NCBI GenBank assembly: GCA_046331425.1
Contig: JAXLQU010000020.1
Coordinates: 8,788-72,787, forward strand
Reading direction: 5' to 3'
From: Acidobacteriota bacterium
Lineage (GTDB): Bacteria > Acidobacteriota > Polarisedimenticolia > J045
Length of the DNA stretch: 64,000 nucleotides
Both the position numbers and the translations under genes were made by a program. Shown here piece after piece: positions 45,585 through 64,000 of the stretch (its first letter is position 1; each line of letters begins with the position of its first letter). The notes under the pieces were generated by a model. That model did not search any database and was not told the origin of the DNA. It saw only the letters and a list, made by a program, of their open reading frames with translations.

Positions 45585-46327
45585 GGGGTTTCCTTCCTCT
45601 CGTGCAGCTTAACCGGTGGGGACTTCTTTCGCAGTCGCATGTTGATCATTTCCACAAACAAAGAGAACGCCATCGCGAAGTAGATGTACCCCTTGTTGAT
45701 GTGAGTTCCCATCGACTCGGCCACCAGCATGGTGCCGATCAATAGCAGGAACGAGAGCGCCAGGACCTTGATGCTGGGATGGCGCTCGACAAAGCCGCCC
45801 ACCGCGTTCATCGCCAGCATCATGGCCACCATCGCAATCGTCATCGCGACCACCATGATCGGAACGTGACTTGCCATCCCGACCGCGGTGATCACCGAGT
45901 CGAGCGAGAACACGATATCCAGAACGGCGATCTGCATCAGAATCACCATCGCCTTCTTCCCGCGCTCTGCGGCGGAGGCTCCGTCGTGCGGATCGGCCTC
46001 CAGCTTCTCGTAAATCTCCCAAGTCGCCTTGAACATCAGAAACAGGCCGCCGCCGAGCAAGATCAGATCACGACCGCTCCAGTCCTTGCCCAACAGCGAA
46101 AACCAGGGCGCAGTCAGCGACATCAGCGTGCTCAGAAAGAGCAGCAGAATGATTCTTGTCCCGAGGGCCAACAACAACCCGAGGCGGCGAATTCTGGGCT
46201 GCTGATCTTTCGGCAACTTGCCGGTTAGAATCGCGATGAAAACGATGTTGTCGACACCGAGGACGATCTCCATGAGGGAGAGCGTCACCAGTGAGATGAG
46301 TCCGTCGGCGGTAAGAAATCCTTCCAT
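45581..46327 (-). CDS. TerC family membrane protein
   Basis: MEIVLGVDNIVFI, DIVFSLDSVITAVG, YIYFAMAFS. Confidence 0.92.
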   Translation of the reverse strand: MEGFLTADGLISLVTLSLMEIVLGVDNIVFIAILTGKLPKDQQPRIRRLGLLLALGTRIILLLFLSTLMSLTAPWFSLLGKDWSGRDLILLGGGLFLMFKATWEIYEKLEADPHDGASAAERGKKAMVILMQIAVLDIVFSLDSVITAVGMASHVPIMVVAMTIAMVAMMLAMNAVGGFVERHPSIKVLALSFLLLIGTMLVAESMGTHINKGYIYFAMAFSLFVEMINMRLRKKSPPVKLHERKETP

Positions 46328-46428
46328 GGGTCGGGGATGCTAGCAGGGATCGACCCCAAGAAGGCTGGGCCGCCGGGCCGCTCAATATCGAGTTTTGCAC
46401 CGTAAGGTCGGATCCAGGACGTCATCAG

Positions 46429-48723: not shown

Positions 48724-48873
48724 ATCATGAGTTTCGGGCCTTCTGGGCCTGTTCGTGCTGATTCCATCCTGCCTTCCGGCCCGGACCGGTCGCACGTCGC
48801 CTATCATTTGCAAAACGCCCGGGCGTGGTCTTAACTCCCGTCCGCCTAATAGGGATTGGGTCAAGGAGCAGAG

Positions 48874-50364
48874 ATGAAAAGCACTATTCGGGATTTGGTA
48901 GCGGCCGCCGCGGCCGTCCTCGCCGCTTACGGTGCGTCGGTGGCGTGGGCCGGAGAGGATCCGTTCGAAGTAGGGGTTGTCGTCGGTGCCACCGCGGCTG
49001 ATTCAGGTGTCGATTCCGACAAACTCGCCGATTCGCTGACCCCCACGTATGGCCTGCGCCTGGCGTGGAACTTCAACGATCGACTCGGTTGGTTCATCGA
49101 TGGCACACGCGCCAAATTCGATGCCGCTAACCTGATTGGAGATGTGAAAGAGACTGCATTCCGAACCGGCTTGGAGTGGGACATTCCGACCAAGACGAGT
49201 GATTTCGGCTGGTTCATCAACGGTGGTGTCGGCCGCTCTTCATTCGATGTTCCAACCTTCAGCGACAACGACAATCGGACCTTCGGCTCGGCTGGTATCG
49301 GCGTGAAGCAGTTCTTCGATAGCGGCAACAATCTGCGCTTGGAAGCTCGCCTGGATCGAACCTTCGGTGGTGACAAGGGCGATCCATTGGGCGATGACTC
49401 GTACAACATGATTCGCTTCCTGCTCGGCTATTCGTTCGGCATTGGCGGCAAGCCGGTCGATACCGATGGCGATGGTGTGTTCGATCGCAAGGACAAGTGC
49501 CCCGATACACCCAAGGGCGCCACCGTCGACGAGAAGGGTTGCCCCAAGGATAGCGACGGCGACGGTGTGCTCGATGGTCTGGACCAGTGCCCCGATACGC
49601 CGAAGGGTTGGCCGGTCGATGCCAAGGGCTGCCCGCTCGATGCCGATGGTGACGGTGTTGCCGATGGCGCCGACAAGTGCCCGAACACGCCTAAGGGCTG
49701 CAAGGTCGATGCGAATGGCTGCCCGCTCGACAGCGATGGTGATGGCGTTTGCGACGGACTCGACAAGTGCCCTGGTACTCCGAAGGGGACGCCGGTCGAT
49801 GCCTCGGGTTGCGCCAAGGACAGCGATGGTGACGGCGTCACCGACGACAAGGACAAGTGCCCGGGCACGCCCGCCGGCATCAAGGTCAACGCCGATGGAT
49901 GCCCCGCCGATAGCGATGGCGACGGTGTCACCGACGACAAGGACAAGTGCCCCAACACTGCGGCCGGCATCAAGGTCGGTGCTGATGGATGTCCCGAGGT
50001 GGCGCCGTTGTTCACGCCGGGTAACGACGTGTTCGTGTTGGAAGGCGTGAACTTCGACAGCGACAAGTCCGACATTCGCAGCGATGCCAAAGAGATCCTC
50101 GATCGCGTGGTGCGCAGCCTCAAGGCGTACCCGGATGTGAATATCGAGATCCAAGGGCATACCGATTCGCAATCCAGCGATGCGTACAACCTCAAGTTGT
50201 CGCAGCGAAGGTCCGATGCCGTGATGAACTACTTCGTCGAGAACGGTATCGCGGCGAGTCGCATGACGGCCAAGGGGTACGGCGAGAGCAAGCCGATCGC
50301 CGACAACAAGACCAAGGAAGGTCGCGCCAAGAACCGCCGCGTGGAGTTGCATCGCGCTAACTGA
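48874..50364 (+). CDS. OmpA family protein: N-terminal beta-barrel, six TSP3 repeats, C-terminal peptidoglycan-binding domain
   Basis: AAGGAG SD; DxDGDG repeats; IQGHTDS, LSQRRSDAV, NRRVE. Confidence 0.93.
   Translation: MKSTIRDLVAAAAAVLAAYGASVAWAGEDPFEVGVVVGATAADSGVDSDKLADSLTPTYGLRLAWNFNDRLGWFIDGTRAKFDAANLIGDVKETAFRTGLEWDIPTKTSDFGWFINGGVGRSSFDVPTFSDNDNRTFGSAGIGVKQFFDSGNNLRLEARLDRTFGGDKGDPLGDDSYNMIRFLLGYSFGIGGKPVDTDGDGVFDRKDKCPDTPKGATVDEKGCPKDSDGDGVLDGLDQCPDTPKGWPVDAKGCPLDADGDGVADGADKCPNTPKGCKVDANGCPLDSDGDGVCDGLDKCPGTPKGTPVDASGCAKDSDGDGVTDDKDKCPGTPAGIKVNADGCPADSDGDGVTDDKDKCPNTAAGIKVGADGCPEVAPLFTPGNDVFVLEGVNFDSDKSDIRSDAKEILDRVVRSLKAYPDVNIEIQGHTDSQSSDAYNLKLSQRRSDAVMNYFVENGIAASRMTAKGYGESKPIADNKTKEGRAKNRRVELHRAN
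49459..49998 (+). repeat. Six tandem 90-bp (30-aa) thrombospondin type-3 repeats
   Basis: DxDGDGVxDxxDxCPxTPxGxxVDxxGCP repeated six times. Confidence 0.9.
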
Positions 50365-50418
50365 TGCCGCGTGGCGCCGATGGGCGCTTTCTGTTGATTT
50401 CTGCTAGAACGTTCAGCC

Positions 50419-50454
50419 TTCGGGGCGGGTGCAATACCCGCCCCGAACTTTGTT
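50419..50454 (+). terminator. Intrinsic terminator-like hairpin after ompA
   Basis: Perfect 12-bp stem TTCGGGGCGGGT/ACCCGCCCCGAA, 5-nt loop, followed by CTTTGTT. Confidence 0.7.
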
Positions 50455-50492
50455 CGCCAAGGGGCTCGGGGCCTCGGCGAGGAGATTTGACG

Positions 50493-51362
50493 ATGAAGCG
50501 TCTTGTGGGAATTGCAGTTTCACTGTTGGCCGCGGCCAGTGTTGTCGGCTATGCCGCGGACGAAAAGAAGCTCGGCTGGTCCGACACCTCAGACTTCAGT
50601 TACGTGCTCACCAACGGAAACTCCAGCACCAACACGTTTGGTTTCAAGAATGTGCTCAAGCGCGATTGGCAGAACGCGGCGTTCACGCTGCGGGCCGGTG
50701 CGGTGCGAGCGAGCAACGAGGTAGTGACACGCGCGGCGATTCAGCGGCCAAGCGGTGTAACGTTTCTGGAAGACTCCGAGAACGTGACGTCGACCGAGTT
50801 CTACTATCTCAACGGTCAGTACGATCGGAATATCTCCGAGAACTTCTATTGGTTCGCTGGCGCAGGCTGGGAGCGCAATGAACCGGCCGGAATCTCCAAT
50901 CGCTACGTCGTGTCGGGCGGTGTCGGAAACATCTGGAACAATACCGACGACCTCAAGTTCAAGACGTTCTATGGAGCGACGTGGACCAACCAGAAGCCTG
51001 TCGTTGGTGACAGCGATAGCTTCGTCGGGGTCCGTGCCGGTTATGACTACTTCAACAAGCTCACCGCCACGACGACCATGGGGAGCGTGTTCATCATCGA
51101 TCTCAACGCTTCGGAAACGAGCGATTGGCGTGGTGACTTGACCAACTGGGTCGCGGTAGCAATCAACGACCGCATGGCGCTGAAGGCTGGGTTGCAACTG
51201 CTGTATGACAACCGGCCTTCGTTCCGGGACGTCGATTTGTACGAGCAAGTCCCGATCTTGGCGCCGGATATCCCACCAGGGTTTGTGAAGACCGGCACGG
51301 TCGCTCAGGAGTTGGACAAGCTCGACTCGATCTTCACGACGTCGCTGGTGATCAACTGGTAA
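50493..51362 (+). CDS. DUF481-like outer-membrane beta-barrel protein
   Basis: GGAG SD; signal peptide; GNSSTNT, YYLNGQYDR; ends TTSLVINW. Confidence 0.8.
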   Translation: MKRLVGIAVSLLAAASVVGYAADEKKLGWSDTSDFSYVLTNGNSSTNTFGFKNVLKRDWQNAAFTLRAGAVRASNEVVTRAAIQRPSGVTFLEDSENVTSTEFYYLNGQYDRNISENFYWFAGAGWERNEPAGISNRYVVSGGVGNIWNNTDDLKFKTFYGATWTNQKPVVGDSDSFVGVRAGYDYFNKLTATTTMGSVFIIDLNASETSDWRGDLTNWVAVAINDRMALKAGLQLLYDNRPSFRDVDLYEQVPILAPDIPPGFVKTGTVAQELDKLDSIFTTSLVINW

Positions 51363-51429
51363 GCGTGATTTCGTCCGTTGTTATCGCTTGAAGTCTCGAG
51401 GGCGGACACCGCGTGATCGGTGCCCGCCC

Positions 51430-52569
51430 TCATTCTTTCGCCCGATCGTGAGCACGCACCAGGGCTTCCGTGACATCGGCCGCAGCAGCCAGCGCTGCCT
51501 GGTCCAAATTGGCGGCCACATCGTTTGGTGTGTGAATCGACAGCACCGCTTTGGAGAGTTTGGCGGCGGTGATCGTCACGACCTTCAAACCGCTCGCGGT
51601 CAACGGCATCGCATCGGTGCCGGTGCCGAGCGGCAGCATGATTCGTCGAGCCGAAACGCCGGCGGCGCGCAGTTGTCGAAGCGCTTCTCGGACCAACGAT
51701 CCTTTCCCCACGATGCCGATGCCGCCAGGCGCGCCGACCCCGTCGTGGTTGATGACCAGGGTCTTGCCGCTATTCCAAACCGCGGCATGATCGCGGGCCG
51801 CGATGCGCGCGCCGGCCATCGCGTGCTCCTCGGCCCCGGTGAACAATGCGACCACCTCGATCTGCACGGGCGGCGATTGCTTCAATCGCCCCAAAACATT
51901 CAGTACCACGGCAACCGAGGCAGCGTTATCCAGCGCGCCGGGTGATTCGTTATCGAACGACAGTCGACCGAGCGCTCGCAGAGCAATCGCTGCGGCGATC
52001 GGCCCCAAGATCGTCCACACGGGCGGCTCCGCTCGCAAGCACAACGGCAGCGTCAAGGTTCCCAACACAGCTATGGTTGTGAGGGCGCCGCGCCACAGAA
52101 ACGAGATGTTCTGCGACTTGCTGTCCAAGTGTGCGACCAGAACTACCCGACGAGACGATCCGGCGCCGAGCTTGACCGAGATGTTCTGCGTTTCCAGCTC
52201 GGCATCCTGCCGATCGTCGAGCGCGAAGCTCTCGTCATCGAAGAGCGCCCGACGCAGATCCCAAACTCCAAACCCTCCACAGAACAAGAGTACGAAGAGC
52301 GCCGGCCAACCCCACAGCGAACCAGCCAATGCGGTTAGCGCGATACCGACGGAAAGCAACAGCAACCCGGTGCGCATCCGGGCCAAGGGTTGCTGCAGCG
52401 AATAGCGAAATCGTCTTTCGAACGGATCGTGGCCGCGCTGACGCAGCGTGTTCAACAACCACTCGCGAGCCCGTGCATCACCCGCCGTTGCTGCCGCGCG
52501 CGGGAACGACAATGCGGCGGCATCGGCAAGGATTTGCTCGCCGGCCTGGGCCGGTGGGGCTTCGCTCAC
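51430..52569 (-). CDS. M28 family metallopeptidase with membrane segments
   Basis: AHLDS, GALDNAASV, GAEE, NHDGVG, IHTPND. Confidence 0.85.
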   Translation of the reverse strand: MSEAPPAQAGEQILADAAALSFPRAAATAGDARAREWLLNTLRQRGHDPFERRFRYSLQQPLARMRTGLLLLSVGIALTALAGSLWGWPALFVLLFCGGFGVWDLRRALFDDESFALDDRQDAELETQNISVKLGAGSSRRVVLVAHLDSKSQNISFLWRGALTTIAVLGTLTLPLCLRAEPPVWTILGPIAAAIALRALGRLSFDNESPGALDNAASVAVVLNVLGRLKQSPPVQIEVVALFTGAEEHAMAGARIAARDHAAVWNSGKTLVINHDGVGAPGGIGIVGKGSLVREALRQLRAAGVSARRIMLPLGTGTDAMPLTASGLKVVTITAAKLSKAVLSIHTPNDVAANLDQAALAAAADVTEALVRAHDRAKE

Positions 52570-53027
52570 GTCTCAACCGTAACGGTGAGCTCCACGGTTT
52601 GAATCAGCGGCATCACGTAGTTCAGCGTCAGTCTCGTCAAGGTGAACTCGCGTGTCTTTCCCAACCACGACTTGCCGCCAAACTCGAATTCGTCGATCAC
52701 CGCCCCGGCCGCATCGAGTAGCTTCACACCGATCCTGACGTCGTAGGCGTCCTTCCCTTGGTTTTGGACCTGGACCAGGGTTTTGAGCCATCCGAACCGG
52801 GTCTGACCGCCGCGCGGCGGCAACACCACATCGACGAGTCGTCGATCCTCTTGCGTGATCGAAGCGCCGTTGACGCGCACCGGGCCCATCACGAGATCGA
52901 GCTTGTGCGGAGTCCTGAGATCGAACGGCAGCTTGACGGTTTGGGAGAGTGTCTCGGCGTGAGTGGTGGCAACAGTACCGGCCACTACCAAACACAAGGC
53001 GACGGCGCGCGTGAATGAACCAAGCAT
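52566..53027 (-). CDS. Exported hypothetical protein (153 aa)
   Basis: Signal peptide MLGSFTRAVALCLVVAGTVATTHA; GTGA overlap with the M28 gene. Confidence 0.7.
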   Translation of the reverse strand: MLGSFTRAVALCLVVAGTVATTHAETLSQTVKLPFDLRTPHKLDLVMGPVRVNGASITQEDRRLVDVVLPPRGGQTRFGWLKTLVQVQNQGKDAYDVRIGVKLLDAAGAVIDEFEFGGKSWLGKTREFTLTRLTLNYVMPLIQTVELTVTVET

Positions 53028-53144
53028 CGTGATCTCCTGTGGTAATGAGCGTCGGATTGTAGCCCTTTGATCGATCCCGCCCCATCTTAGGTCGGGGTCG
53101 ATCGCGGCTCTTGTTTCAACCCGAAACGAGCGACGAGGGAAACG

Positions 53145-53519
53145 GTGTACAAGCCGGTCGCGTTGGTGATCGAAGATCACGAGAGTGTGCGGGAGGTGCT
53201 TTCCACGGCGCTGCGCCGGATGGGCTGCACCGTGCTGTCGGAAGCTGACGGTGATGCCGGTCTGCGCACCGCGCGCACGGCGAAGCCCGATCTGGTGCTG
53301 GTCGATATGCGGTTGCCGGGGCTCGACGGGCTGAGTCTCGTGGATCAGGTCCGCCGAAGTTTCAGCACCAAGCCGCCCGCCGTGATCGTGCTCACCGGGT
53401 ACGCGTCGGCCAATCGGCGCGATCAGGTCCTGGCTGGCGGGGGTGATGCGTTTTTCGAGAAGCCGGTCGACTTGGGCGAGTTGGAGCGGACCGTCTCTTC
53501 CCTGCTCAAGCGCTCTTGA
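53145..53519 (+). CDS. Single-domain response regulator (CheY-like)
   Basis: VIEDH, LVDMRLPGLDG, LTG, FEKP. Confidence 0.9.
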   Translation: MYKPVALVIEDHESVREVLSTALRRMGCTVLSEADGDAGLRTARTAKPDLVLVDMRLPGLDGLSLVDQVRRSFSTKPPAVIVLTGYASANRRDQVLAGGGDAFFEKPVDLGELERTVSSLLKRS

Positions 53520-53576
53520 GCCGCCGGGTCTGACGACCTGGGCCGTAGCTCGGCAAAACAGGGCTGAAAAAAGTTC

Positions 53577-53612
53577 TTGCTCGCTCGAGAACATCTTGCA
53601 TAATCATGCACT
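53577..53612 (+). promoter_or_regulatory. ARG box CTTGCATAATCATGCACT (53595-53612) overlapping a putative promoter (TTGCTC / CATAAT)
   Basis: Perfect TGCAT-N4-ATGCA palindrome directly before the argG ATG; argR ends the operon. Confidence 0.8.
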
Positions 53613-54803
53613 ATGCAAAAACAACCCCAGCAGCCCTTGGCCCTCGCCTTCAGCGGCGGACTCGATACTTCCTTCTGCGTCGCCAAGCTCAAAGACGAGG
53701 GCTGGGATGTCCACACCGTCTTCGTCGACACGGGAGGGATCGAGGCCACGGGTCGCGCCGGTATCCGCAAACAGGCCGAGGCCCTAGGCGCCGCCGCGCA
53801 CTATGAAATCGACGCCAAGCAAGCGGTGTTCGAGCGGTTCGTCAGCGTTCTGATCCGCGGCAATGTGTTGCGTGGCGAGGTCTATCCCCTTTCCGTCGCC
53901 GCCGAGCGCACGCAACAGGCGCTGTCGGTGGTCGAGGTGGCGCGGAAGATCGGAGCCAAGGCGCTCGCGCACGGGTCGACCGGAGCCGGCAATGATCAGG
54001 TTCGATTCGACATCGCGTTCCGTGTGCTGGCTCCCGAGCTGCCGATCCTGACCCCGATACGCGACGGCTCGTTGCCGCGCGAGACCACGATCGCGTTTCT
54101 GCGTGACCGCGGCTTACCGGTGCCGGCGCGAGCCGTGACCTATTCCGTCAACGAGGGATTGTGGGGAACGACACTCGGTGGCGGCTGGACTCACGATCCG
54201 TGGGCTGGACCGCCAGAGACATGGCTCGATCCCCCGGACAGATCCCTTCCGGCGCGCGAGTTGATCCTCGGTTGGGAACAAGGACTCCCCGTCAGCATCG
54301 ATGGCGAGCGGATGCCGGGACCGCTGTTGGTCGAGCGGCTCGGTTCGACTGCCGTCGAATACGGCGTGGGGAAGAACATCCACGTCGGTGAGACCGCTCT
54401 CGGTATCAAGGGGCGAATCGGATTCGAAGCGGGGGCCGCGCTGCTCTTGATCGGCGCTCACCGCGAACTCGAGAAGCTGGTGCTGACACGCTGGCAGACA
54501 TTCTGGAAGGATCAGTTGGCGCGTTTTTATGGCGATCGTCTGCACGAAGGGCATTGGTTCGACCCGGCGCTGCGCGACATCGAAGCGATGATCCTTTCGT
54601 CGCAGCAACGCGTCACCGGCGAGACACGAGTGCGGCTGGTGCCTGGACAGTTTCATGTGGTGGGCACGCGCAGCCCGCATTCGTTGATCGATCATGAAGT
54701 CGCTACCTACGGTGAAACCAACCGACTTTGGGATGGAAACGAAGCGAGGGCTTACGCCCGAATCGCCTCGATCCCCTCGCTGCTCGCTGCAAAGAGAGGC
54801 TGA
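53613..54803 (+). CDS. argG: Argininosuccinate synthase
   Basis: LAFSGGLDTS, AHGSTGAGNDQVRF, YSVNEGLWG, IKGRIGFE. Confidence 0.93.
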   Translation: MQKQPQQPLALAFSGGLDTSFCVAKLKDEGWDVHTVFVDTGGIEATGRAGIRKQAEALGAAAHYEIDAKQAVFERFVSVLIRGNVLRGEVYPLSVAAERTQQALSVVEVARKIGAKALAHGSTGAGNDQVRFDIAFRVLAPELPILTPIRDGSLPRETTIAFLRDRGLPVPARAVTYSVNEGLWGTTLGGGWTHDPWAGPPETWLDPPDRSLPARELILGWEQGLPVSIDGERMPGPLLVERLGSTAVEYGVGKNIHVGETALGIKGRIGFEAGAALLLIGAHRELEKLVLTRWQTFWKDQLARFYGDRLHEGHWFDPALRDIEAMILSSQQRVTGETRVRLVPGQFHVVGTRSPHSLIDHEVATYGETNRLWDGNEARAYARIASIPSLLAAKRG

Positions 54804-54804
54804 G

Positions 54805-55875
54805 ATGGTTGCCACCACGCGCGTGCGACTCGACCGGATCGCAAGCTCTACCAAGAACGCAAAACTGACGCGCGATGCCACGCTGGGACCCGAGATCGTG
54901 AGCCAGGAGGGTTATGTCATCGCGGTGCGGATCGTGTCGGACAAGTCGAGCTACAACACGGTCGAGGATTTGGCCGGGCGAATGGTTCCGCTGCGCTCCG
55001 GCGACATCCTTGCCGGGACTTTGGGCGAGCGACGCGCGCTGCGCGGTTACTCGGGGGTCGTGCCCAACAGTTTGGTTCCGGGCGATGTCATCGATGTGCT
55101 GAACTTGGGCGGAGTGCTCGGCCGCGCGACGTCGATCAATCGCGATTTGGGCGAACCTTTGAAGGCTGAAGTGCTGGGCGCGATCTTGGCGTTTCCCGAA
55201 TTGGGCGATCGCATCGGGCGCCCCGCGCACATCAAGCACGGCACCGTACCCGGCGCACAGAAGTTGGAGATCGATCTGCCGGTGATCTACGTCGCGGGTA
55301 CCTGTATGAACGCGGGCAAGACCGTCGCGGCAACAGAAATCGTGCGGGGGCTGACGCGGCGCGGGAAACGGGTGGCTGCCACAAAACTCACCGGCGTGGC
55401 GTTGATGCGCGACACGCTTTCGATGTTGGACGCCGGTGCGATTCATGCGTTGACGTTCAACGATGCGGGCGCTGCCAGCACCAAGAGTGGAATGACGGTG
55501 CCGGTCGCCAAGGGAATCTTGAACCTACTCGCGATCGAGTCACGACCGGATGTGGTCGTTGCCGAGCTTGGCGACGGGATCTTGGGCGAGTACGGCGTGC
55601 AGGACATTCTGATGGACGCCGAGCTGACCGGTGTGGCCGCAGCATTCGTGATGGCCGCACCCGATCCGGTCGGCGCGTGGGGCGCGCTGCAGTTGATGCG
55701 CGATCGATTCCACTTGCCTGTGAGTGTGATCACCGGCCCGGCCACCGACAACGAGGTCGGCAAGCAGTACATCACTCGGCACTTGGAGCTTCCGGCGTTC
55801 AATGCGCGCTACGACGCCAACGGGTTGGTAGATGTCGTTGAGACAGCGCTGACCTCTGTGAATAGCCGGCAGTAG
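54805..55875 (+). CDS. DUF1611-like P-loop protein embedded in the arg operon (candidate glutamate N-acyltransferase)
   Basis: GTCMNAGKT (55297-55323), KLTG, VVAELGDG; starts 1 bp after the argG stop. Confidence 0.7.
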   Translation: MVATTRVRLDRIASSTKNAKLTRDATLGPEIVSQEGYVIAVRIVSDKSSYNTVEDLAGRMVPLRSGDILAGTLGERRALRGYSGVVPNSLVPGDVIDVLNLGGVLGRATSINRDLGEPLKAEVLGAILAFPELGDRIGRPAHIKHGTVPGAQKLEIDLPVIYVAGTCMNAGKTVAATEIVRGLTRRGKRVAATKLTGVALMRDTLSMLDAGAIHALTFNDAGAASTKSGMTVPVAKGILNLLAIESRPDVVVAELGDGILGEYGVQDILMDAELTGVAAAFVMAAPDPVGAWGALQLMRDRFHLPVSVITGPATDNEVGKQYITRHLELPAFNARYDANGLVDVVETALTSVNSRQ

Positions 55876-55896
55876 CGGCGAGCGAGAAGAGACGCC

Positions 55897-56916
55897 ATGA
55901 AAGCCGTTGTCATCGGAGCCGCGGGATACGCCGGCGGAGAGTTGCTGAGACTGCTGCTGACACACCCGCAGGTGGCGTCGGTGCGAGCCATCAGTCGTAG
56001 CGCAGGCGGGAGCTTGCTCAGCGAAGTTCACCCGCAACTCGCCGCGATCACCGAGGCGCGCTTTGAATCGATCTCTCCCCTCTCCGCGGCGGCGGAAAGC
56101 GATGTGGTCTTTCTTGCGCTCGAACACGGCGCCTCGTCGCACCTGGCCAAGGAGCTGCTTTCCGCTGCGCGCGGGGTTGTGATCGATATCGCTGCCGACT
56201 TCCGGATTCACGATCAAGCGCTCCACACGCGTTACTACGGAGCACACCCCGAGCCGTCGCTGGTCCCAGAGTTCAAATACGCGCTGGCCGATGTCGAGGG
56301 GCCAGCGTTGCGCGGACATCGTGCCTTGGCAATCCCGGGCTGCTTCGCCACCGCTGCCGCGCTGGCAATGCGCCCGCTCGCGATGTCAGCTCCGCGCGCG
56401 CACGCCTCGCTGTTCGCGGTGACCGGATCATCGGGAGCCGGAGCGCAGCCAAAAGAGACGACGCATCATCCTCGCCGCGCCACCAATCTGCGCGCGTATC
56501 AGCCGTTTTCGCATCGTCATCAGGCCGAGATCGACCAATGCTGGCAGGCTTGGGCCGGAAACGATGCCGCGCCTCGCTTGCTCACACACAGCGGACCGTT
56601 CGTGCGCGGAATCGCGCTCACGCTGCACGCGCGTGGACGATTCGAAACCGACGGCCCCTCGCTGTTGGCCCGCACGTATGAGGGCCGGCCGTTCATCCAT
56701 CGGCTCGACGCACCGCCGGCGCTCAACCACGTGGTTGGAACGAATCTCGCGCTGATGTTTGCTCAGGTGAGCGAGGACGGTCACGAGCTGATGATCTGTT
56801 GCGCGATCGACAACCTGATCAAGGGCGCCTCAGGCCAGGCGGTGCAAGCGATGAACCTGACTCTGGGTTTGCCGGAAGAGGCAGGATTGCGCCTGGCAGG
56901 TCCGTTCCCATGTTGA
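55897..56916 (+). CDS. argC: N-acyl-gamma-glutamyl-phosphate reductase
   Basis: GAAGYAGGEL, PGCFATA, GSSGAG, IDNLIKGASGQAVQAMN. Confidence 0.93.
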   Translation: MKAVVIGAAGYAGGELLRLLLTHPQVASVRAISRSAGGSLLSEVHPQLAAITEARFESISPLSAAAESDVVFLALEHGASSHLAKELLSAARGVVIDIAADFRIHDQALHTRYYGAHPEPSLVPEFKYALADVEGPALRGHRALAIPGCFATAAALAMRPLAMSAPRAHASLFAVTGSSGAGAQPKETTHHPRRATNLRAYQPFSHRHQAEIDQCWQAWAGNDAAPRLLTHSGPFVRGIALTLHARGRFETDGPSLLARTYEGRPFIHRLDAPPALNHVVGTNLALMFAQVSEDGHELMICCAIDNLIKGASGQAVQAMNLTLGLPEEAGLRLAGPFPC

Positions 56917-58070
56917 GTGCCAAACCTCCCGCTGCGTTGCTGCCGGTGTATGCAACGATGCCCGTGCGTCCGGTCGCCGGCCGCGGAAGCTGGCTGATCG
57001 ACGAGGATGGGCGGAAATGGCTCGATGCTTACGGTGGACACGCGGTGGCCTCGTCGGGGCATTCGCATCCTCGCGTCGTCGACGCGATTGCTCAGCAAGC
57101 GGCAACGTTGTTGTTCTATTCCACGGCCGTGCGGCTGCCGCAGCGCGAAACCCTGGCCGAATCGTTGGTGGCGCACTGTCCCGCGCCCTTGGCTCGAGTC
57201 TTCTTTTGCAACAGCGGCGCCGAGGCCAACGAGAATGCGTTGAATCTGGCGCGACGCGCCACCGGCCGACAGCAAATCGTGACGTTGCAAGGCGGCTGGC
57301 ATGGACGCACGGCGGCGACGCTGGCGTTGTGCGATGGCGCGCGCTACGAGCAGGGGGCGACACGTGCGGGAGTCGAGTTGTCGCGACGCGTGCCGTTCAA
57401 CGACATGGCCGCGCTCGATGCCGCGCTCGACAGCACCGTGGCGGCGGTGTTGATCGAACCGGTGCAAGGGATGGCCGGCGCGCGCGCGGTGTCGCGCGAG
57501 TTTCTGGAGGCGGCGCGTTCGCTTTGCACGCGGCGAGGGGCAGCCTTGATCTTCGACGAAGTTCAATGCGGTGTCGGTCGCTGTGGCGCATTCACGGCGG
57601 CAGAGGTTTACGGCGTGGTGCCTGACCTGCTGACGCTCGCCAAGGGGCTCGGCGCTGGTCTTCCGATCGGCGCCACGATCGCCAGCGAGGCGATCACCAG
57701 CGAGGTCAGTGTGGGCGACTTGGGGAGCACCTTCGGTGGTGGACCGGTACCGTGTGCCGCTGCATTGGCGAATCTGAAGGTAATCGAGGACGAATCGCTG
57801 ATCGACAATGCGCGAACGATCGGCAACTGGTTGCGCGAGCGTGCGGTTGCGATCGGTCTGCCGCGACCCGATGGGCTGGGGCTGCTCATCGGTGTGCGAT
57901 TGCCGCAACCGGCAGCACAGATTCAGTCGCTGCTGTTCGAAAAGCGGATCTTGACCGGTACATCGAGTGATCCGTACGTGATGCGCTGGATGCCGCCGTT
58001 GTCTTTCTCGATCAGCGAGGCGCAGTTGTTGATCGATTCGCTGCAGGAGGTACTGAATGCTCGAGCGTGA
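56910..58070 (+). CDS. argD: N-acylornithine aminotransferase (class III PLP)
   Basis: FCNSGAEANE, FDEVQCG, TLAKGLG, STFGGGP. Confidence 0.88.
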   Translation: MLSAKPPAALLPVYATMPVRPVAGRGSWLIDEDGRKWLDAYGGHAVASSGHSHPRVVDAIAQQAATLLFYSTAVRLPQRETLAESLVAHCPAPLARVFFCNSGAEANENALNLARRATGRQQIVTLQGGWHGRTAATLALCDGARYEQGATRAGVELSRRVPFNDMAALDAALDSTVAAVLIEPVQGMAGARAVSREFLEAARSLCTRRGAALIFDEVQCGVGRCGAFTAAEVYGVVPDLLTLAKGLGAGLPIGATIASEAITSEVSVGDLGSTFGGGPVPCAAALANLKVIEDESLIDNARTIGNWLRERAVAIGLPRPDGLGLLIGVRLPQPAAQIQSLLFEKRILTGTSSDPYVMRWMPPLSFSISEAQLLIDSLQEVLNARA

Positions 58071-59076
58071 CTTTCTCGCCGTCGAGGATTGGGCTTACGA
58101 CGATATCGATGCGCTGTTGATGCTGGCGACGCGGGTCAAGCGCGGAGACGTCTCTGGTGGCCTGACCGGGCTGACGCTGGCTGCGCTGTTCCTCGATCCC
58201 AGCCTGAGAACTCGAGCGAGTTTCGAGGCGGCGATGGCGCTCCACGGCGGTCATACGCTCGTGCTCGAGCCTGGACGCGGTGCATGGCCACTCGAACTGG
58301 AGCCGGGCGCCGTGATGGACGGCGCAACGGTCGAACACGCGATCGATGCAGCGCGCGTGTTGGGACGTTACGCCGACTTTCTGGCGGTGCGTTGCTTCCC
58401 TCGTGGTGCCACTTGGCAAGATGCACGACGTGACGATGTGCTGAATCTGTTTGCGAAGCACTGCGAGAAGCCGGTGATCAATCTGGAATCGGCGCGTCGC
58501 CATCCGTGTCAAGAGCTTGCCGACATGCAGACGATCGTTGAGAAGGTCGGGCGCACGCAGGGAAAGAAATTCGCGCTGACCTGGAGTTGGCACCCCAAGG
58601 CGTTGCCGACCGCAGTCCCAGCCAGCGCTGCCTTGGCCGCGGCACGACTCGGCATGGACCTCACGATCGCTCGCCCTGATGGTTACGATCTCGACAGCGA
58701 CGACATGGCGACTATTCAACGGATCGCAGAAGAGCGCGGCGGAAGCGTGACCACCACGGAGGATATGGACGATGCCGCCACCGGCGCCGTGGTGGTGTAC
58801 GCCAAGTCGTGGGGCGCTTTGGGAGATTTTGGCAACCCTGAACGCGAGTCGGAACGGCGTGCCGGACTTCGTCACTGGCGTGTGAGTAGCTCCCTGATGA
58901 AACGCACACACGATGCTGCCGGCGCCTTCATGCATTGCCTGCCGGTGCGCCGAAACGTCGAGGTCGATGACGCCGTGATCGATGGGCCATGGTCGGCGGT
59001 GGTCGACCAAGCGGAGAATCGTCTCCATGCTCAGCGCGCGCTGCTGTTGACTCTGGCTCGGGAGACACGCCGATGA
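58057..59076 (+). CDS. argF: N-acylornithine carbamoyltransferase ArgF' (AOTCase/SOTCase family)
   Basis: SLRT, VMDGATVEH, HPCQ, TWSWHPKAL and HCLPVRRN; these motifs are typical of ArgF' rather than classical OTC. Confidence 0.9.
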   Translation: MLERDFLAVEDWAYDDIDALLMLATRVKRGDVSGGLTGLTLAALFLDPSLRTRASFEAAMALHGGHTLVLEPGRGAWPLELEPGAVMDGATVEHAIDAARVLGRYADFLAVRCFPRGATWQDARRDDVLNLFAKHCEKPVINLESARRHPCQELADMQTIVEKVGRTQGKKFALTWSWHPKALPTAVPASAALAAARLGMDLTIARPDGYDLDSDDMATIQRIAEERGGSVTTTEDMDDAATGAVVVYAKSWGALGDFGNPERESERRAGLRHWRVSSSLMKRTHDAAGAFMHCLPVRRNVEVDDAVIDGPWSAVVDQAENRLHAQRALLLTLARETRR

Positions 59077-60002
59077 CACCAACATCGCAGCCTGGACTTT
59101 CGGGGTTGAAGGGGGCGCTGCGTTACGTCCGCGCCTACCGAGATCGAACCTTCGTCGTCAAGCTGGGTGGTGACGTGCTGGCCGATGCAAGGGCGCTCGA
59201 CAACGTCGCAACCCAGGTGGCGCTGTTGAACTCGTTGGGAATTCGCGTCGTGGTGGTTCACGGTGGTGGACCGCAAGCCAGCGCGTTGATGCGGCGGCTC
59301 GGCCTCGAACCGCAGATCGTGGCCGGCCGGCGAGTCACCGATGCTGCGGCACTCGAAGCGGCCGTGATGGTGTTTGCCGGTCAGCTCTCGACGCTGGTCT
59401 GCAGCGCACTTCGTCATCACGGCGTCGCGGCGGTCGGACTTACGGGCGTCGACGCCGAGTTGATCACGGCCGTTCGACGCCCACCGATGAGCGTGCGTCA
59501 TGACGACGGGCAAACCAGCGTGGTCGACTTCGGGCATGTTGGCGATATCACGGCGGTAGATCCACGGTTACTGACACATCTGCTCGATGCGCGATTCGTT
59601 CCTGTCGTTGCTTCCTTGGCGGGCGATCACGACGGCAACGTCTTCAATGTCAACGCGGACACGGTAGCCGGGAGGATTGCGGTCGCCTTGCAGGCTCAGA
59701 AGTTGATCTTTCTCACCGGCGCGCCTGGTGTGATGCGTGATCGTGCCGACCCTTCGACGTTGATCAGCTTCGCCGATGCCGATGACCTACAACCCTTGAT
59801 GTCCAGCGGTGCGATCGCCGGCGGGATGCAGCCGAAAGTAGAAGCGTGTCTTCGCGCCGTCGCGCACGGTGTGGAACGGACGCATGTCATCGATGGGCGC
59901 GCCGCCGACTCGTTGCTGCTCGAGGTGTTCACCGGTAGTGGCCTCGGCACGATGATCGTTCAGCGCAAGGGAATCGCCGATGCCGACGACGACGCTCAGT
60001 GA
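59073..60002 (+). CDS. argB: N-acylglutamate kinase
   Basis: VVKLGG, VHGGGPQ, NVNADT, GGMQPKVEAC; no fused GNAT domain. Confidence 0.92.
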   Translation: MTPTSQPGLSGLKGALRYVRAYRDRTFVVKLGGDVLADARALDNVATQVALLNSLGIRVVVVHGGGPQASALMRRLGLEPQIVAGRRVTDAAALEAAVMVFAGQLSTLVCSALRHHGVAAVGLTGVDAELITAVRRPPMSVRHDDGQTSVVDFGHVGDITAVDPRLLTHLLDARFVPVVASLAGDHDGNVFNVNADTVAGRIAVALQAQKLIFLTGAPGVMRDRADPSTLISFADADDLQPLMSSGAIAGGMQPKVEACLRAVAHGVERTHVIDGRAADSLLLEVFTGSGLGTMIVQRKGIADADDDAQ

Positions 60003-61053
60003 GGAGACTGCGCTTCTGGCGCAGCTCGTCGCACTTCCCTCGGTCAGCGGCGAGGAGCAGATCGTCGCCGCCGCCTTGCAGCGCGCGGCAACGGCACTTG
60101 GGTTGAAGGTGTGGTGCAACGACAACGGCGTCTTCATCGAGGTCGCGGGACGGTCTTCTGGTCCGACACTCGCGTTCCTATCGCACATCGATACGGTGCC
60201 GCCGGGCGACGGTTGGTCACGCAATCCTTTCGGCGCCGAGGTCGACGATGGACGCCTGTTTGGTCGCGGCAGTAGCGATGCCAAGGCATCGGTTGCCGCG
60301 ATGCTCTACGCAGCGCACGACCTGCAGCGATCGGGGTTGCCGTCGCGCGGGCGGCTGCTGGCGATTTTCGGGTTCAACGAGGAAACCAAGGCAACCTCGA
60401 TGCCGGCCGCGGTTGCAGAATGCGGCCGCTTGGATGCGGCGGTGATTGGTGAGCCAACGTCGTTGTCGTTGGCCTGCGCGCAGCGCGGATTGGTGGTGGC
60501 AGAAATAACCGCAAGCGGCACACAGCGACATGCTGCTCACTCGTCGACAGACGATGACAACTCGATCCTGCGATTGGCCCGCGACCTGCTGTGCGCCGAG
60601 ACGTTGTTCGCCGAGCGCGAGCACGCTTTGCTCGGTCGGGTCAGCGTCACGCCCACCATGATCTCGGGCGGGGTGGCACGAAACCTCACCGCACCGGCAG
60701 CCCACGCCGTGCTGGACATCCGCACCACACCTGATTGGACTCACGATGAAATCGAGTCGCTGTTGCGCAGCACTCTGAAGGCCGACGTCGTCATCGCCTC
60801 CAAGCGACTGCTTCCGTGCGAAACACCGCGCGAGTCGAGCTTGCTGGCGCTCGCCCAGCAATTGCGGCCCGAAGCGCGCCGCTACGGCAGCCCGACCTGC
60901 AGCGACTGGGTCTTCGTGAGGCATCTGGATGCGTTCAAGTGCGGCCCTGGCGACAGCGCGCTTTCGCATCGCCCCGACGAGTCGGTCGATTTGTTACAAG
61001 TCCGAGAGGCAAGGAAGTTCTACGCGGCGCTCGCCGCAGGGTATCTGTCGTGA
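59980..61053 (+). CDS. argE: M20 deacylase (N-acylornithine/N-acylcitrulline deacylase)
   Basis: SHIDTV, GRGSSDAK, NEE, GEPT, HRPDE; operon context. Confidence 0.85.
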   Translation: MPTTTLSEETALLAQLVALPSVSGEEQIVAAALQRAATALGLKVWCNDNGVFIEVAGRSSGPTLAFLSHIDTVPPGDGWSRNPFGAEVDDGRLFGRGSSDAKASVAAMLYAAHDLQRSGLPSRGRLLAIFGFNEETKATSMPAAVAECGRLDAAVIGEPTSLSLACAQRGLVVAEITASGTQRHAAHSSTDDDNSILRLARDLLCAETLFAEREHALLGRVSVTPTMISGGVARNLTAPAAHAVLDIRTTPDWTHDEIESLLRSTLKADVVIASKRLLPCETPRESSLLALAQQLRPEARRYGSPTCSDWVFVRHLDAFKCGPGDSALSHRPDESVDLLQVREARKFYAALAAGYLS

Positions 61054-62345
61054 AACACACACTGTGGGTCCAGAAGTCGAAGCCGCATCCGCGACTACTA
61101 GCGTTGACGGCCGGGAGCGACCGCGAGTGGGACACGAAACTGTTGCCATTCGATATCCAGGGCTGCATCGGTCACGTCGCAGGACTGCAGGCCAGTCGTT
61201 TGATTAGCGCCAACGAGGCAAGGAAGCTGACGAAGGCATTGCAGGCCGCTGCGTTGGCGTGCGAACGGGGCACGCTGACCGTTACCGAGCAGGACGAAGA
61301 CTGCCACAGTGCCATTGAAGCGTTCGTTACCGCACGACTCGGTGCATTGGGCGGCAAGCTGCACACCGCGCGCTCACGCAACGATCAAGTCGCCGCAGCG
61401 TTGCGGCTCTTCATGAAAGCGGCGCTGCTTCAGGTGCATGCGCGCGCGATCGAATTGGTAGAGTCGCTCCTTGGCCTCGCCGAGAAACACGGAGCCGCAC
61501 CCTTGCCCGGCTACACGCACACGCGACGCGCGATGCCGTCGTCGGTCGCGCTGTGGGCGGGAGCGTTCGCCTCCGGCCTGCTCGACACTCTCGATACATT
61601 GCCGGCGCTTTGGGTCAGCCTCGATCGATCTCCCCTGGGGAGCGCCTCCGGATACGGTGTGCCGCTTACGCTGGACCGCGCGGCAGCGGCCAAGGCGCTC
61701 GGATTCTCCGATGTCGATCTGCCGGTAACGCTCACCCAGAACTCGCGCGGCAAGCTGGAGGCTTCTGCCTTGTTTTGGTGCGTTCAACTCGGACACGACG
61801 CAAGCAAATTGGCCTGCGACGCAATTCTTTTCTCCGGCGAGGAGTTTGGATTGTTCGCAATCGACGGCTCCTTGACCACGGGGTCGAGCCTGATGCCTCA
61901 CAAACGCAATCCCGATCTGTTCGAGCTGGCGCGAGCCCGCGCTGCCGCACTCGAGGGAGATTTGGCTCGAGTGCGTGCCGTACGCGGTGGTCTCGCCAGC
62001 GGTTATCACCGCGATTTTCAGCTCCTCAAAGAGCCGCTGATGCGTGGACTCGACCGCGCGGCGGAGATGCTCGAGATGTTGGCGATTGGTATGGCGGGGC
62101 TCACACCCGATCGTGCGCGCGGCGCCGCAGCGATCGATGACGGTGTGCGCGCCACCGGCGAAGCGTTACGTCGTGCGAGAGCGGGCGTACCGTTTCGGCT
62201 GGCGTACCAACAGGTCGCTCGCGAGCTGGAGCAGGGGCTCACGCCACCACCGACAGCAGCGGCATCGTTAGATCTGAAGCCGTTCCGACGCCGGGTCGTC
62301 GCTGCAAGGCGCTGGTCGGTTTCATCCAAAGCGAGGCGCGCTTGA
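61050..62345 (+). CDS. argH: Argininosuccinate lyase (short form, ~431 aa)
   Basis: LHTARSRNDQ, PGYTH, SPLGSASGYG, TGSSLMPHKRNPD; GTGA overlap with argE. Confidence 0.92.
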   Translation: MKHTLWVQKSKPHPRLLALTAGSDREWDTKLLPFDIQGCIGHVAGLQASRLISANEARKLTKALQAAALACERGTLTVTEQDEDCHSAIEAFVTARLGALGGKLHTARSRNDQVAAALRLFMKAALLQVHARAIELVESLLGLAEKHGAAPLPGYTHTRRAMPSSVALWAGAFASGLLDTLDTLPALWVSLDRSPLGSASGYGVPLTLDRAAAAKALGFSDVDLPVTLTQNSRGKLEASALFWCVQLGHDASKLACDAILFSGEEFGLFAIDGSLTTGSSLMPHKRNPDLFELARARAAALEGDLARVRAVRGGLASGYHRDFQLLKEPLMRGLDRAAEMLEMLAIGMAGLTPDRARGAAAIDDGVRATGEALRRARAGVPFRLAYQQVARELEQGLTPPPTAAASLDLKPFRRRVVAARRWSVSSKARRA

Positions 62346-62547
62346 TTTCGATGTGCGTCGATCACGTCTTGCAGGATGCGCCCGCTCTCTCGGCGTTCGC
62401 ATGTCGTGAAGCGCTCGAACGACGCGGGGCGAGGGCGCCACGCTTCACGCTCGACGCCCGACCACCTGGGCGACGGTGGAATTCAATTTCGACAGGGCGC
62501 GATATCCTCAGCGCTGCCAACAGCGCTGACTACGATTGCCCACGACC

Positions 62548-62988
62548 ATGAGCGAGCACCGGCAAAAGCGCCTGTTGCGCATCCTCGAGCTGATTTCCAC
62601 CCACCCGATCGGAACGCAGGAAGGGCTCGCTGCAGCGTTGAAGGCCGATGGCTGGGACGTAACGCAGTCTTCGGTCAGCCGCGATATCGCAGCACTCGGC
62701 TTGGTCAAGGCCAAAGGGATCTATCGCAAACCGACGCGCATCGCGCCCGAGCCACAGAATCCGGATATCGAACGGATCCGCGAAGGGGTGTTGATGGTCG
62801 ACAACGCGGGCGATCACTTGGTGGTGATCCACACGCCGCCGGGTGAGGCGAACCGCGTGGCGGTAGCACTGGACCGGCTCACGTGGGAGGAGATCGCGGG
62901 GACGATCGCCGGCGACGACACCATCTTCGTCGCCGTACGCAGCGCGTCTGCTAGCAAGAAATTGGTGGCGCGACTGCGCGATCTCTAG
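62548..62988 (+). CDS. argR: Arginine repressor
   Basis: TQEGL, VTQSSVSRDI, GTIAGDDTIFV. Confidence 0.95.
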   Translation: MSEHRQKRLLRILELISTHPIGTQEGLAAALKADGWDVTQSSVSRDIAALGLVKAKGIYRKPTRIAPEPQNPDIERIREGVLMVDNAGDHLVVIHTPPGEANRVAVALDRLTWEEIAGTIAGDDTIFVAVRSASASKKLVARLRDL

Positions 62989-62995
62989 TGCTCGT

Positions 62996-63445
62996 TCACG
63001 TCCCGATGTCGACCGTCGCGCGCCACTTGCCATCCTCGCCTTTGCGCCAAACGGTGAGGTAGTTGCCGCGCCCTTCGATCGGCTTGCCGTCTTTGTCTTT
63101 GCCTTTGTACAGGTAGTGTCCGGTCGTGAAACCCAGATCTCCCGAAGGGAACACGGTGGCGGTATCGGGCCACCATTCCAGCGACGGCCCTCCCGGTGTC
63201 AGCAGCTTCGCCCACGTTTCGGCGATCTGTTGCGGACCGATGCTCTGCTCACGTCCATAGAACACAGCGTCCGCTGCGATCAGCGACTTGAAAAGCGGTG
63301 TGTCATCCTGCGCAACCGCGCGAGCCAATTCCAGGTCGGCCGCCTTGATCGCCGCCTCCGCCGCGACGATCGAAGCCCCTTCAGCCGCCAGCACCGCGGC
63401 AGGACTCGCCAACAGAACTGCCATGAGTCCCAGACTCATACGCAT
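62996..63445 (-). CDS. Exported NTF2-like (DUF4440/SnoaL) protein
   Basis: Signal peptide; SGDLGFTTGHY, GNYLTVWRKGEDGKWR. Confidence 0.85.
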   Translation of the reverse strand: MRMSLGLMAVLLASPAAVLAAEGASIVAAEAAIKAADLELARAVAQDDTPLFKSLIAADAVFYGREQSIGPQQIAETWAKLLTPGGPSLEWWPDTATVFPSGDLGFTTGHYLYKGKDKDGKPIEGRGNYLTVWRKGEDGKWRATVDIGT

Positions 63446-63583
63446 AAGAACCTCCTCGACAGATTGTCCCCTGAGTGGCCCACAAGGCCTGTAAAAGCAT
63501 GTGATTGGTTACTAACGAGAGTTATCGAGTACGAACACCACCCGGCATAGAATCGCCGGCGCGAGGGTCTCGTTGGAGGGGCG

Positions 63584-64000
63584 ATGCGTTTTTTCGGGTG
63601 GTGGTGGGTCGTTGCGATCGCCGTGTCGGCCGCGAACGCCAATGGCAGCAGTTCGAAAATCGATCGACTCGGGACGGCGGTGGTGCCCACGGCACAGTCG
63701 TTGGAACTCAGGGTCGATGCACGTCAGGACAATTACCAAGGTCGCACCACGATCGCACTTCGGGTGAAGCAGGCCACGAACAGTTTCCGGCTGCATGCCG
63801 CGGAACTCGAACTCGAGAGCGTCGCACTCACCCGCGCTGGAAAACCGATCACGATCACATTCGCCGCCGCGGGCGACGACCAGCTCGAGATCAAAACCTC
63901 CAAGCCGTTGACACCTGGAGGTGACTATTCGTTGAGCATCGAGTTCAAGAACAACTTCGATACGCGGGCGAATGCACTCTACAAACTGAACTACGAAGGG
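63584..64000 (+). CDS. 5' part of an exported M1-family aminopeptidase (runs off the window; absent from the ORF track)
   Basis: GGAGG SD; MRFFGWWWVVAIAVSAANA signal; RLGTAVVP, Y.G.TTI.L, RLHA.EL, GLY-like ALY motif. Confidence 0.75.
   Translation, partial: MRFFGWWWVVAIAVSAANANGSSSKIDRLGTAVVPTAQSLELRVDARQDNYQGRTTIALRVKQATNSFRLHAAELELESVALTRAGKPITITFAAAGDDQLEIKTSKPLTPGGDYSLSIEFKNNFDTRANALYKLNYEG

Follow-up and report, generated by a model that had tools for sequence, protein, structure and literature searches.

The 64,000-nucleotide stretch of the Acidobacteriota contig JAXLQU010000020.1 analysed here (hereafter the window) contains a complete arginine operon, argG-X-argC-argD-argF'-argB-argE-argH-argR, which on balance appears to run on N-succinylated rather than N-acetylated intermediates, with the uncharacterised gene X making N-succinylglutamate. 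In the proposed pathway, gene X would N-succinylate L-glutamate (step 1), the carbamoyltransferase ArgF' would convert N-succinyl-L-ornithine to N-succinyl-L-citrulline, and the M20-family hydrolase encoded by argE would release citrulline by removing the succinyl group, and the citrulline would feed ArgG and ArgH. We infer that ArgB, ArgC, ArgD and ArgE are likewise specific for succinyl substrates. A preliminary description of the window had raised both the possibility of such an operon outside the Bacteroidetes and the candidacy of gene X as an N-succinylglutamate synthase. The first proposal is now supported computationally by three specificity residues of ArgF', by its 120 nearest listed homologues and by all 65 ArgF' proteins encoded beside gene X homologues; the second is supported by the status of gene X as the sole operon gene without a step, by its conserved position and by its fusion to ArgB.

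The translation of positions 58312-58341 (+) reads VMDGATVEHA, which places the motif DGATVEH inside the 339-aa argF' open reading frame, with the valine codon exactly where the preliminary description had located it. A phmmer search of Protein Data Bank (PDB) sequences showed that residues 4-166 of ArgF' align without a gap to the N-acetylornithine carbamoyltransferase (AOTCase) of Xanthomonas campestris (Xc), and Val92 of ArgF' thus corresponds to Glu92 of the Xc enzyme. The top match was 3L06 (2.8e-91), an Xc chain with DGDTVEH, that is, the E92V mutant, and the second-best was 3M5C, the Xc K302E variant; chains with V, A or P at residue 92 were found among the matches. A three-way MAFFT alignment that included the N-succinylornithine carbamoyltransferase (SOTCase) of Bacteroides fragilis (Bf) likewise placed Xc E92, Bf P90 and ArgF' V92 in one column, so the assignment of this valine to the acetyl/succinyl switch held. 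The motifs DGDTEEH of Xc and DGDKPEH of Bf, both quoted in the preliminary description, were found in PDB sequences (1JS1/2FG6 for the latter), where 2G7M is the P90E variant of the Bf enzyme. The Bf sequence used as a PDB probe equalled 1JS1 at 318 of 318 residues.

Three residues have been reported to separate the two enzymes, Glu92/Asn185/Lys302 in AOTCase against A, S, P, V or Q at the first position, P at the second and V, I or E at the third in SOTCase (PMC4581275, section 8). Replacement of Glu92 by A, P, S or V turns AOTCase into SOTCase, as the preliminary description had noted and as is stated in two sources (PMC4581275; bioRxiv 10.1101/2024.10.14.618325). The MAFFT alignment showed that the triad of ArgF' is Val92/Pro184/Glu302, with all three residues in the SOTCase state and none in the AOTCase state. 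Because the SOTCase state is present at all three published positions, ArgF' is predicted to carbamoylate N-succinyl-L-ornithine, and it very likely prefers this substrate. Lys302 of the Xanthomonas enzyme is, we presume, reversibly carboxylated, and Glu302 of ArgF' could be a mimic of the carboxylated state.

The remainder of the protein is that of a carbamoyltransferase of this group. ArgF' matches Pfam OTCace_N and OTCace, the residues that hold the parts common to both substrates are kept (W77, E144, H179, K181, K250 and R298), and the carbamoyl-phosphate-binding motifs SxRT/HPxQ/HxLP are present as SLRTR, HPCQ and HCLP, aligned with those of Xc and Bf. The features of the knotted group, Trp77 of the 80s loop (GAWPLE) and the proline-rich loop WHPKALPTAVP, also align to both enzymes, and a knot is expected in ArgF' given its 47% identity to solved structures. 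Xc AOTCase (3KZC, wild type; 3L06, E92V) is the best structural relative of ArgF' and of the same length class; the wild type has Glu92/Asn185/Lys302 and uses N-acetylornithine, whereas ArgF' has Val, Pro and Glu. Bf SOTCase (1JS1/2FG6/2FG7; EC 2.1.3.11) shares with ArgF' the role in arginine biosynthesis, the knotted type with the motifs and loops just named, a non-acidic switch residue (Pro90 against Val92), Pro at the position of Xc 185 and a residue other than Lys at that of Xc 302. However, the two are only 36% identical, ArgF' has longer, Xanthomonas-like loops, Pro and Ile of Bf are Val and Glu in ArgF' at two of the three discriminators, and the succinyl-anchoring Arg178 of Bf is Lys181 in ArgF'.

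The same triad was found throughout the nearest homologues of ArgF'. Among the 121 rows formed by the query and the 120 homologues listed (63-94% identity), 119 were V-P-E and two I-P-E, and those with a name were Gemmatimonadales metagenome-assembled genomes (MAGs). Judged from these sequences, Val at the switch is a clade trait and no chance substitution.

Among the operon genes gene X alone lacks a step, and among the steps only the first lacks a gene, so gene X likely performs step 1. Searches of the operon genes against NCBIfam and Pfam detected no GNAT, ArgA or ArgJ, and ArgB is monofunctional, with the Pfam AA_kinase domain as its sole match over 309 aa and no GNAT/acetyltransferase domain. 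A bifunctional N-acetylglutamate synthase/kinase (NAGS/K; ArgA/B), which organisms with AOTCase are reported to co-encode (PMC4490483), was also absent from the operon in these searches; in Xanthomonas, AOTCase is paired with bifunctional ArgA/B, whereas the window operon has gene X and a monofunctional ArgB. Gene X itself has no NCBIfam match, and its sole Pfam match is to the P-loop of DUF1611 (PF07755); with 24.2 bits it falls short of the 25-bit cut-off, and it spans residues 151-201 only. A word index yielded 2494 homologues, of which the named ones among those listed are all 'hypothetical protein', and the family comprises 1604 clusters at 50% identity with E <=1e-3.

A scan of GTDB species genomes gave at least 593 gene X relatives, and loci, triads and gene orders were taken from the best 80 (down to 56% identity), which belong to Gemmatimonadota and to MAGs labelled Acidobacteriota/Thermoanaerobaculia, Myxococcota, Planctomycetia and Elusimicrobiota. 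The result showed that the gene order of the window recurs in most loci with a long enough contig (about 70 loci, several phyla), and that argG-X-argC is kept in all loci apart from those in which the operon is truncated by a contig end or argG lies downstream (L070, L076 and L079). In the Elusimicrobiota loci, argR is upstream. For 65 loci the ArgF' encoded beside the gene X homologue could be typed, from Gemmatimonadota, Acidobacteriota, Myxococcota and Elusimicrobiota MAGs. Residue 92 was V in 60, A in three, I in one and P in one, and the triads were VPE (56), VPV (3), APV (3), IPE (1), VPI (1) and PPE (1); neither E at 92 nor an E/N/K triad occurred in any of the 65. Furthermore, a gene X relative of just 26% identity, from a low-GC metagenome, lies between a P/P/E ArgF' and argC. 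Gene X, ArgG and ArgB are about 70% identical to their Gemmatimonadota orthologues, compared to 50-65% for ArgC, ArgD, ArgF', ArgE and ArgH; in conservation, gene X equals or exceeds the neighbouring known enzymes.

The three loci with argG downstream are of Myxococcota type (Myxococcota/'Deltaproteobacteria') and represent a rearranged operon variant. They keep gene X-argC-(argD)-argB-argE, without an argD match in L079, and no transcarbamylase was found within 8 kb. The argG and argH of these loci, just 30-34% identical to the window copies, lie downstream.

A direct link between gene X and ArgB was found in P0338, a protein of 626 aa in which a gene-X-like domain (residues 4-313) is fused to an ArgB-type amino-acid kinase (residues 363-597). 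The fusion is present on four independent contigs of three JGI metagenomes (loci L086, 8001-9881; L087, 6077-7957; L088, 402-2282), where its gene stands alone, divergent from an arginase-family gene. It follows the same logic as classical N-acetylglutamate synthase, a kinase domain with a GNAT domain, and as the bifunctional NAGS/K of Xanthomonas, and links gene X to the reaction adjacent to that of ArgB. A second cluster representative, P0357 (687 aa), combines a gene-X-like region with an ArgC-type semialdehyde dehydrogenase domain and may be either a genuine fusion or the result of reading through the adjacent X-argC genes.

The AlphaFold2 (AF2) model of gene X (pLDDT 83.6, pTM 0.84) predicts two domains, of which the N-terminal one (about residues 1-130) is beta-rich and the second (about residues 155-356) is an alpha/beta P-loop domain resembling dethiobiotin synthetase (DTBS). 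Foldseek aligned the P-loop domain alone, to SIMIBI-class proteins, with FtsY (4e-6), DTBS (5e-6), the DUF1611 protein 2OBN (8.9e-6), HypB, MeaB and CTP synthase among the top matches. The N-terminal domain modelled alone (pLDDT 59) had no Foldseek match in the PDB, the best E being 0.26. In 56 diverse family members, 26-53% identical to the window protein, G171 and K172 of the P-loop were invariant and T173 nearly so. A profile of diverse members matched FtsY and dethiobiotin synthetases among PDB sequences (DTBS 3.6e-4), and a profile of close homologues gave nothing meaningful there. Alignment of the family profile with Escherichia coli BioD by hhalign (probability 74%, E 2.9e-5), with a single BioD sequence checked against PDB 1A82 as template, paired K172, T173, K194, D203 and E254 of gene X with K15, T16, K37, D54 and E115 of BioD, and each of the five gene X residues was either invariant or conserved to at least 90% among the 56 members. 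We take residues of this kind in DTBS to be ligands of the ATP phosphates and Mg2+ and to stabilise the mixed anhydride, with Lys37 of BioD presumably catalytic. Gene X thus shares with BioD (1A82, 3FGN) the GTxxxxGKT P-loop spacing and an aligned second Lys, Asp and Glu, whereas BioD is a single-domain protein with other substrates, and the overall similarity is low.

Several results speak against the succinyl assignment or against an acyltransferase function of gene X. For ArgF', the identity to Xc AOTCase (47%, 310 bits) is higher than that to Bf SOTCase (36%, 167 bits), and the protein passes the NCBIfam AOTCase equivalog NF003384 with 415 bits against a cut-off of 288; with ArgF' closer overall to AOTCase, its succinyl specificity therefore hinges on three residues. 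For gene X, 2OBN was only fourth in Foldseek (TM-score 0.36-0.39), no better than FtsY or DTBS, so DUF1611 is one of several equally good structural matches, and the DUF1611 protein DgcN (7XRJ) was outside the top 50 for the gene X model. In addition, the diverse profile matched no DUF1611 chain among PDB sequences, and the DUF1611 Pfam match, sub-threshold in gene X, occurred in just 13 of the 56 members, compared to 23 for MobB and 21 for CbiA. The link of gene X to a known acyltransferase is thus weak.

Succinyl-CoA is tentatively proposed as the acyl donor of gene X, by analogy with DgcN, a D-glutamate N-acetyltransferase that depends on acetyl-CoA. DgcN resembles gene X in its DTBS-like SIMIBI P-loop C-terminal domain and acylates a glutamate at its alpha-amino group, as is proposed for gene X. 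The two differ, however, in substrate stereochemistry, acyl group and pathway, the Pfam similarity is sub-threshold and covers about 50 P-loop residues, and the beta-rich N-terminal domain of gene X has no PDB match. Alternatively, gene X may perform step 1 as an ATP- or GTP-dependent succinate:L-glutamate ligase rather than as an acyl-CoA transferase like DgcN or a GNAT protein, with the succinate carboxylate activated as an acyl phosphate as in DTBS and the CobQ/CobB-type amidoligases. This is conceivable because gene X keeps the ATP/Mg2+ residues of DTBS, the five pairs with BioD being conserved as described, and it fits the presence of DTBS among the top Foldseek and the top sequence-profile matches, from the latter of which DUF1611 chains are absent. 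On the other hand, among characterised enzymes of related families DgcN alone acts on glutamate, and it uses acetyl-CoA (bioRxiv 10.1101/2024.10.14.618325); moreover, the 3'-phospho-ADP moiety of CoA can bind a P-loop, the hhalign probability is moderate and was obtained with a template of one sequence, and the five residues may not discriminate between the mechanisms if DUF1611 proteins share them. The ligase mechanism is considered unlikely on this evidence, as is succinate plus ATP as the source of the acyl group, and it is equally doubtful that gene X founds a new first-step class, that of ATP-dependent succinate:L-glutamate ligases with DTBS-type acyl-phosphate chemistry.

A further possibility is that the operon encodes an ordinary N-acetyl pathway of the Xanthomonas type, in which N-acetylornithine would be the substrate of ArgF' in spite of Val92 and gene X would be an N-acetylglutamate synthase of a novel kind. 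The closer overall identity to Xc AOTCase and the match to the AOTCase equivalog agree with it, and every public source names the V/P/E-type clade N-acetylornithine carbamoyltransferase. Nevertheless, an acetyl pathway is very improbable: the three discriminators are all of SOTCase type, the single change E92V reportedly switches the Xanthomonas enzyme, which has the same scaffold, none of the 65 ArgF' proteins beside gene X homologues is of the E/N/K type, and the bifunctional NAGS/K reported for AOTCase organisms (PMC4490483) is missing from the operon. The public names are transitive annotations. The clade is so named because ArgF' passes the NCBIfam AOTCase equivalog, and the NF003384 model fails to separate acetyl from succinyl specificity; by the published residues, the name is probably wrong for the clade.

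HypB, UreG, MeaB and CobW serve partner proteins as metallochaperones, and gene X could in principle be an accessory P-loop nucleoside triphosphatase (a metallochaperone for the M20 metallohydrolase, or a regulator) with step 1 encoded elsewhere, as the top Foldseek matches include HypB, MeaB and FtsY, weak MobB and CobW Pfam matches occur in some members and the ArgE-like protein is a metalloenzyme. Such a role is the least probable of all, because the GTxxxxGKT spacing and second lysine are those of the DTBS/CobQ group and not of G3E GTPases, the fusion partner in P0338 is ArgB and not ArgE, and homologues occur in clusters without argE (bioRxiv 10.1101/2024.10.14.618325); in addition, the conservation of gene X exceeds that of ArgC, ArgD, ArgF', ArgE and ArgH and is level with that of ArgG and ArgB, and the homologues and ArgA homologues exclude each other (bioRxiv 10.1101/2024.10.14.618325).

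The M20 deacylase offers another possible pointer to succinylated intermediates. Its best match among PDB sequences was 3CT9 (1.2e-42), far ahead of 7RSF, named acetylornithine deacetylase (3e-17), and the acetylcitrulline deacetylase of Xc, 2F7V (5.3e-11). We take 3CT9 to be BT3549 of Bacteroides thetaiotaomicron; the sole paper mentioning 3CT9 does not give its organism. If this identity is right, the affinity to 3CT9 would be a second independent pointer to succinyl chemistry, BT3549 being by genetics a candidate N-succinylcitrulline desuccinylase (bioRxiv 10.1101/741918).

A succinylated arginine route is established in B. fragilis, with SOTCase and with ArgB as N-succinylglutamate kinase. 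Genetic evidence has widened it to B. thetaiotaomicron, Echinicola and Pedobacter, and the N-succinylglutamate synthase is probably the GNAT protein BT3761 (PMC8121099; bioRxiv 10.1101/741918). The reaction proposed for BT3761 of B. thetaiotaomicron is that proposed for gene X, and its gene likewise lies in an arg operon beside argG and argC (PMC8121099); however, because the GNAT fold of BT3761 and the P-loop fold of gene X are unrelated, the two would be analogous and not homologous. A closer parallel is found in the GapMind 2026 preprint of Price et al. (bioRxiv 10.1101/2024.10.14.618325, section 11 and Appendix 2), in which ACG33_RS14135 of Steroidobacter denitrificans is predicted to be an alternative N-succinylglutamate synthase. 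According to that preprint, this hypothetical protein is 'virtually always' in arg operons alongside argB, C, D, F', (E), G, H and R, and its family has remote DUF1611/DgcN similarity (Foldseek to 7XRJ, 1.4e-7) and never co-occurs with ArgA homologues. Residue 92 is A, P, S or V in 90% of the 70 ArgF' proteins encoded nearby, and I or T also occur there. Gene X is also an uncharacterised, arg operon-embedded protein with remote DUF1611 similarity, and residue 92 of the ArgF' beside its homologues is V, A, I or P. It is very probably homologous to ACG33_RS14135 (UniProt A0A127FCT3); no Steroidobacter was found among the best 80 of the at least 593 gene X relatives. Differences were also noted: the S. 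denitrificans cluster is without argE, which the window operon has, and 7XRJ, the Foldseek match reported for ACG33_RS14135, is not in the top 50 for gene X, where 2OBN ranks fourth. The succinyl prediction and the residue-92 argument have thus already been published by Price et al. and are not new here; what remains new is the question of gene X chemistry, CoA- or ATP-dependent, and the scale of the likely mis-annotation.

The coordinates of the operon and of its diagnostic residues are collected in Table 1. Gene calls were taken from NCBI record GCA_964611105.1, contig CAZSWZ010000018.1, which is 99.99% identical to positions 44805-64000 of the window; the argD start is the gene call of this near-identical record. 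ArgF' and gene X have their closest named relatives in Gemmatimonadota MAGs, at only about 65-75% identity. Start and stop codons touch or overlap (1 to 23 nt) at most junctions of the operon, which indicates translational coupling. The near-palindrome at the start of argG is probably an ArgR operator for the whole operon, gene X included; 33 of 75 related loci carry the strict pattern TGCATnnnnATGCA within 150 nt 5' of argG, compared to 0.005 expected per 160 nt. Elsewhere in the window, positions 48856-50364 encode an outer-membrane protein of the OmpA family in which thrombospondin-type-3-like calcium-binding repeats (DxDxDGVxDxxDxCP) form a long run; a DUF481 protein comes next.

Table 1. 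Genes, residues and putative regulatory site of the arginine operon (positions in the window)
Feature	Coordinates	Strand	Description
ARG-box-like near-palindrome	53596..53618	+	TTGCATAATCATGCACTATGCAA; overlaps argG start codon
argG	53613..54803	+	Argininosuccinate synthase, 396 aa; NCBIfam argG models 1e-90 to 4e-79; Pfam Arginosuc_synth
Gene X	54805..55875	+	356 aa; begins 1 nt past argG stop codon
Gene X Walker A/P-loop	55297..55323	+	GTCMNAGKT (G165-T173); aligns with E. coli BioD GTDTEVGKT
Gene X Lys194	55384..55386	+	Invariant; aligns with BioD Lys37
Gene X Glu254	55564..55566	+	Invariant; end of hydrophobic strand, Walker-B-like; aligns with BioD Glu115
argC	55897..56916	+	TIGR01850, 4.4e-90, above cut-off
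argD	56910..58070	+	Acetylornithine/succinylornithine-family aminotransferase, 386 aa; TIGR00707, NF002874, about 1e-100; 7-nt overlap with argC
argF'	58057..59076	+	339 aa; knotted-type N-acylornithine carbamoyltransferase, predicted N-succinylornithine-specific
ArgF' Val92 codon	58330..58332	+	GTC; equivalent to Xc Glu92 and Bf Pro90; acetyl/succinyl switch
ArgF' Pro184 codon	58606..58608	+	CCG; equivalent to Xc Asn185 and Bf Pro181; second discriminator
ArgF' Glu302 codon	58960..58962	+	GAG; equivalent to Xc Lys302 and Bf Ile282; third discriminator
argB	59073..60002	+	N-acylglutamate kinase, 309 aa; TIGR00761, 4e-67; 4-nt ATGA overlap with argF'
argE	59980..61053	+	ArgE-like M20 deacylase, 357 aa; Pfam Peptidase_M20 and M20_dimer; predicted N-succinylcitrulline desuccinylase
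argH	61050..62345	+	Argininosuccinate lyase, 431 aa; TIGR00838, 4e-77; GTG start; 4-nt overlap with argE
argR	62548..62988	+	Arginine repressor, 146 aa; TIGR01529, 4.5e-34; Pfam Arg_repressor and C-terminal domain

If the succinyl assignment is true, thousands of database entries would wrongly bear the name 'N-acetylornithine carbamoyltransferase', because the NCBIfam AOTCase model cannot tell the two specificities apart. The N-succinyl arginine route would then be no peculiarity of the Bacteroidota: it would be the standard one for Gemmatimonadota and for some of the Acidobacteriota, Myxococcota and Elusimicrobiota, soil and sediment phyla that are abundant and largely uncultured. The argA gap in such genomes would be filled by the gene X family, with at least 1600 clusters at 50% identity, and, should gene X prove to be a ligase, the N-protection of glutamate in these phyla would need no acyl-CoA.

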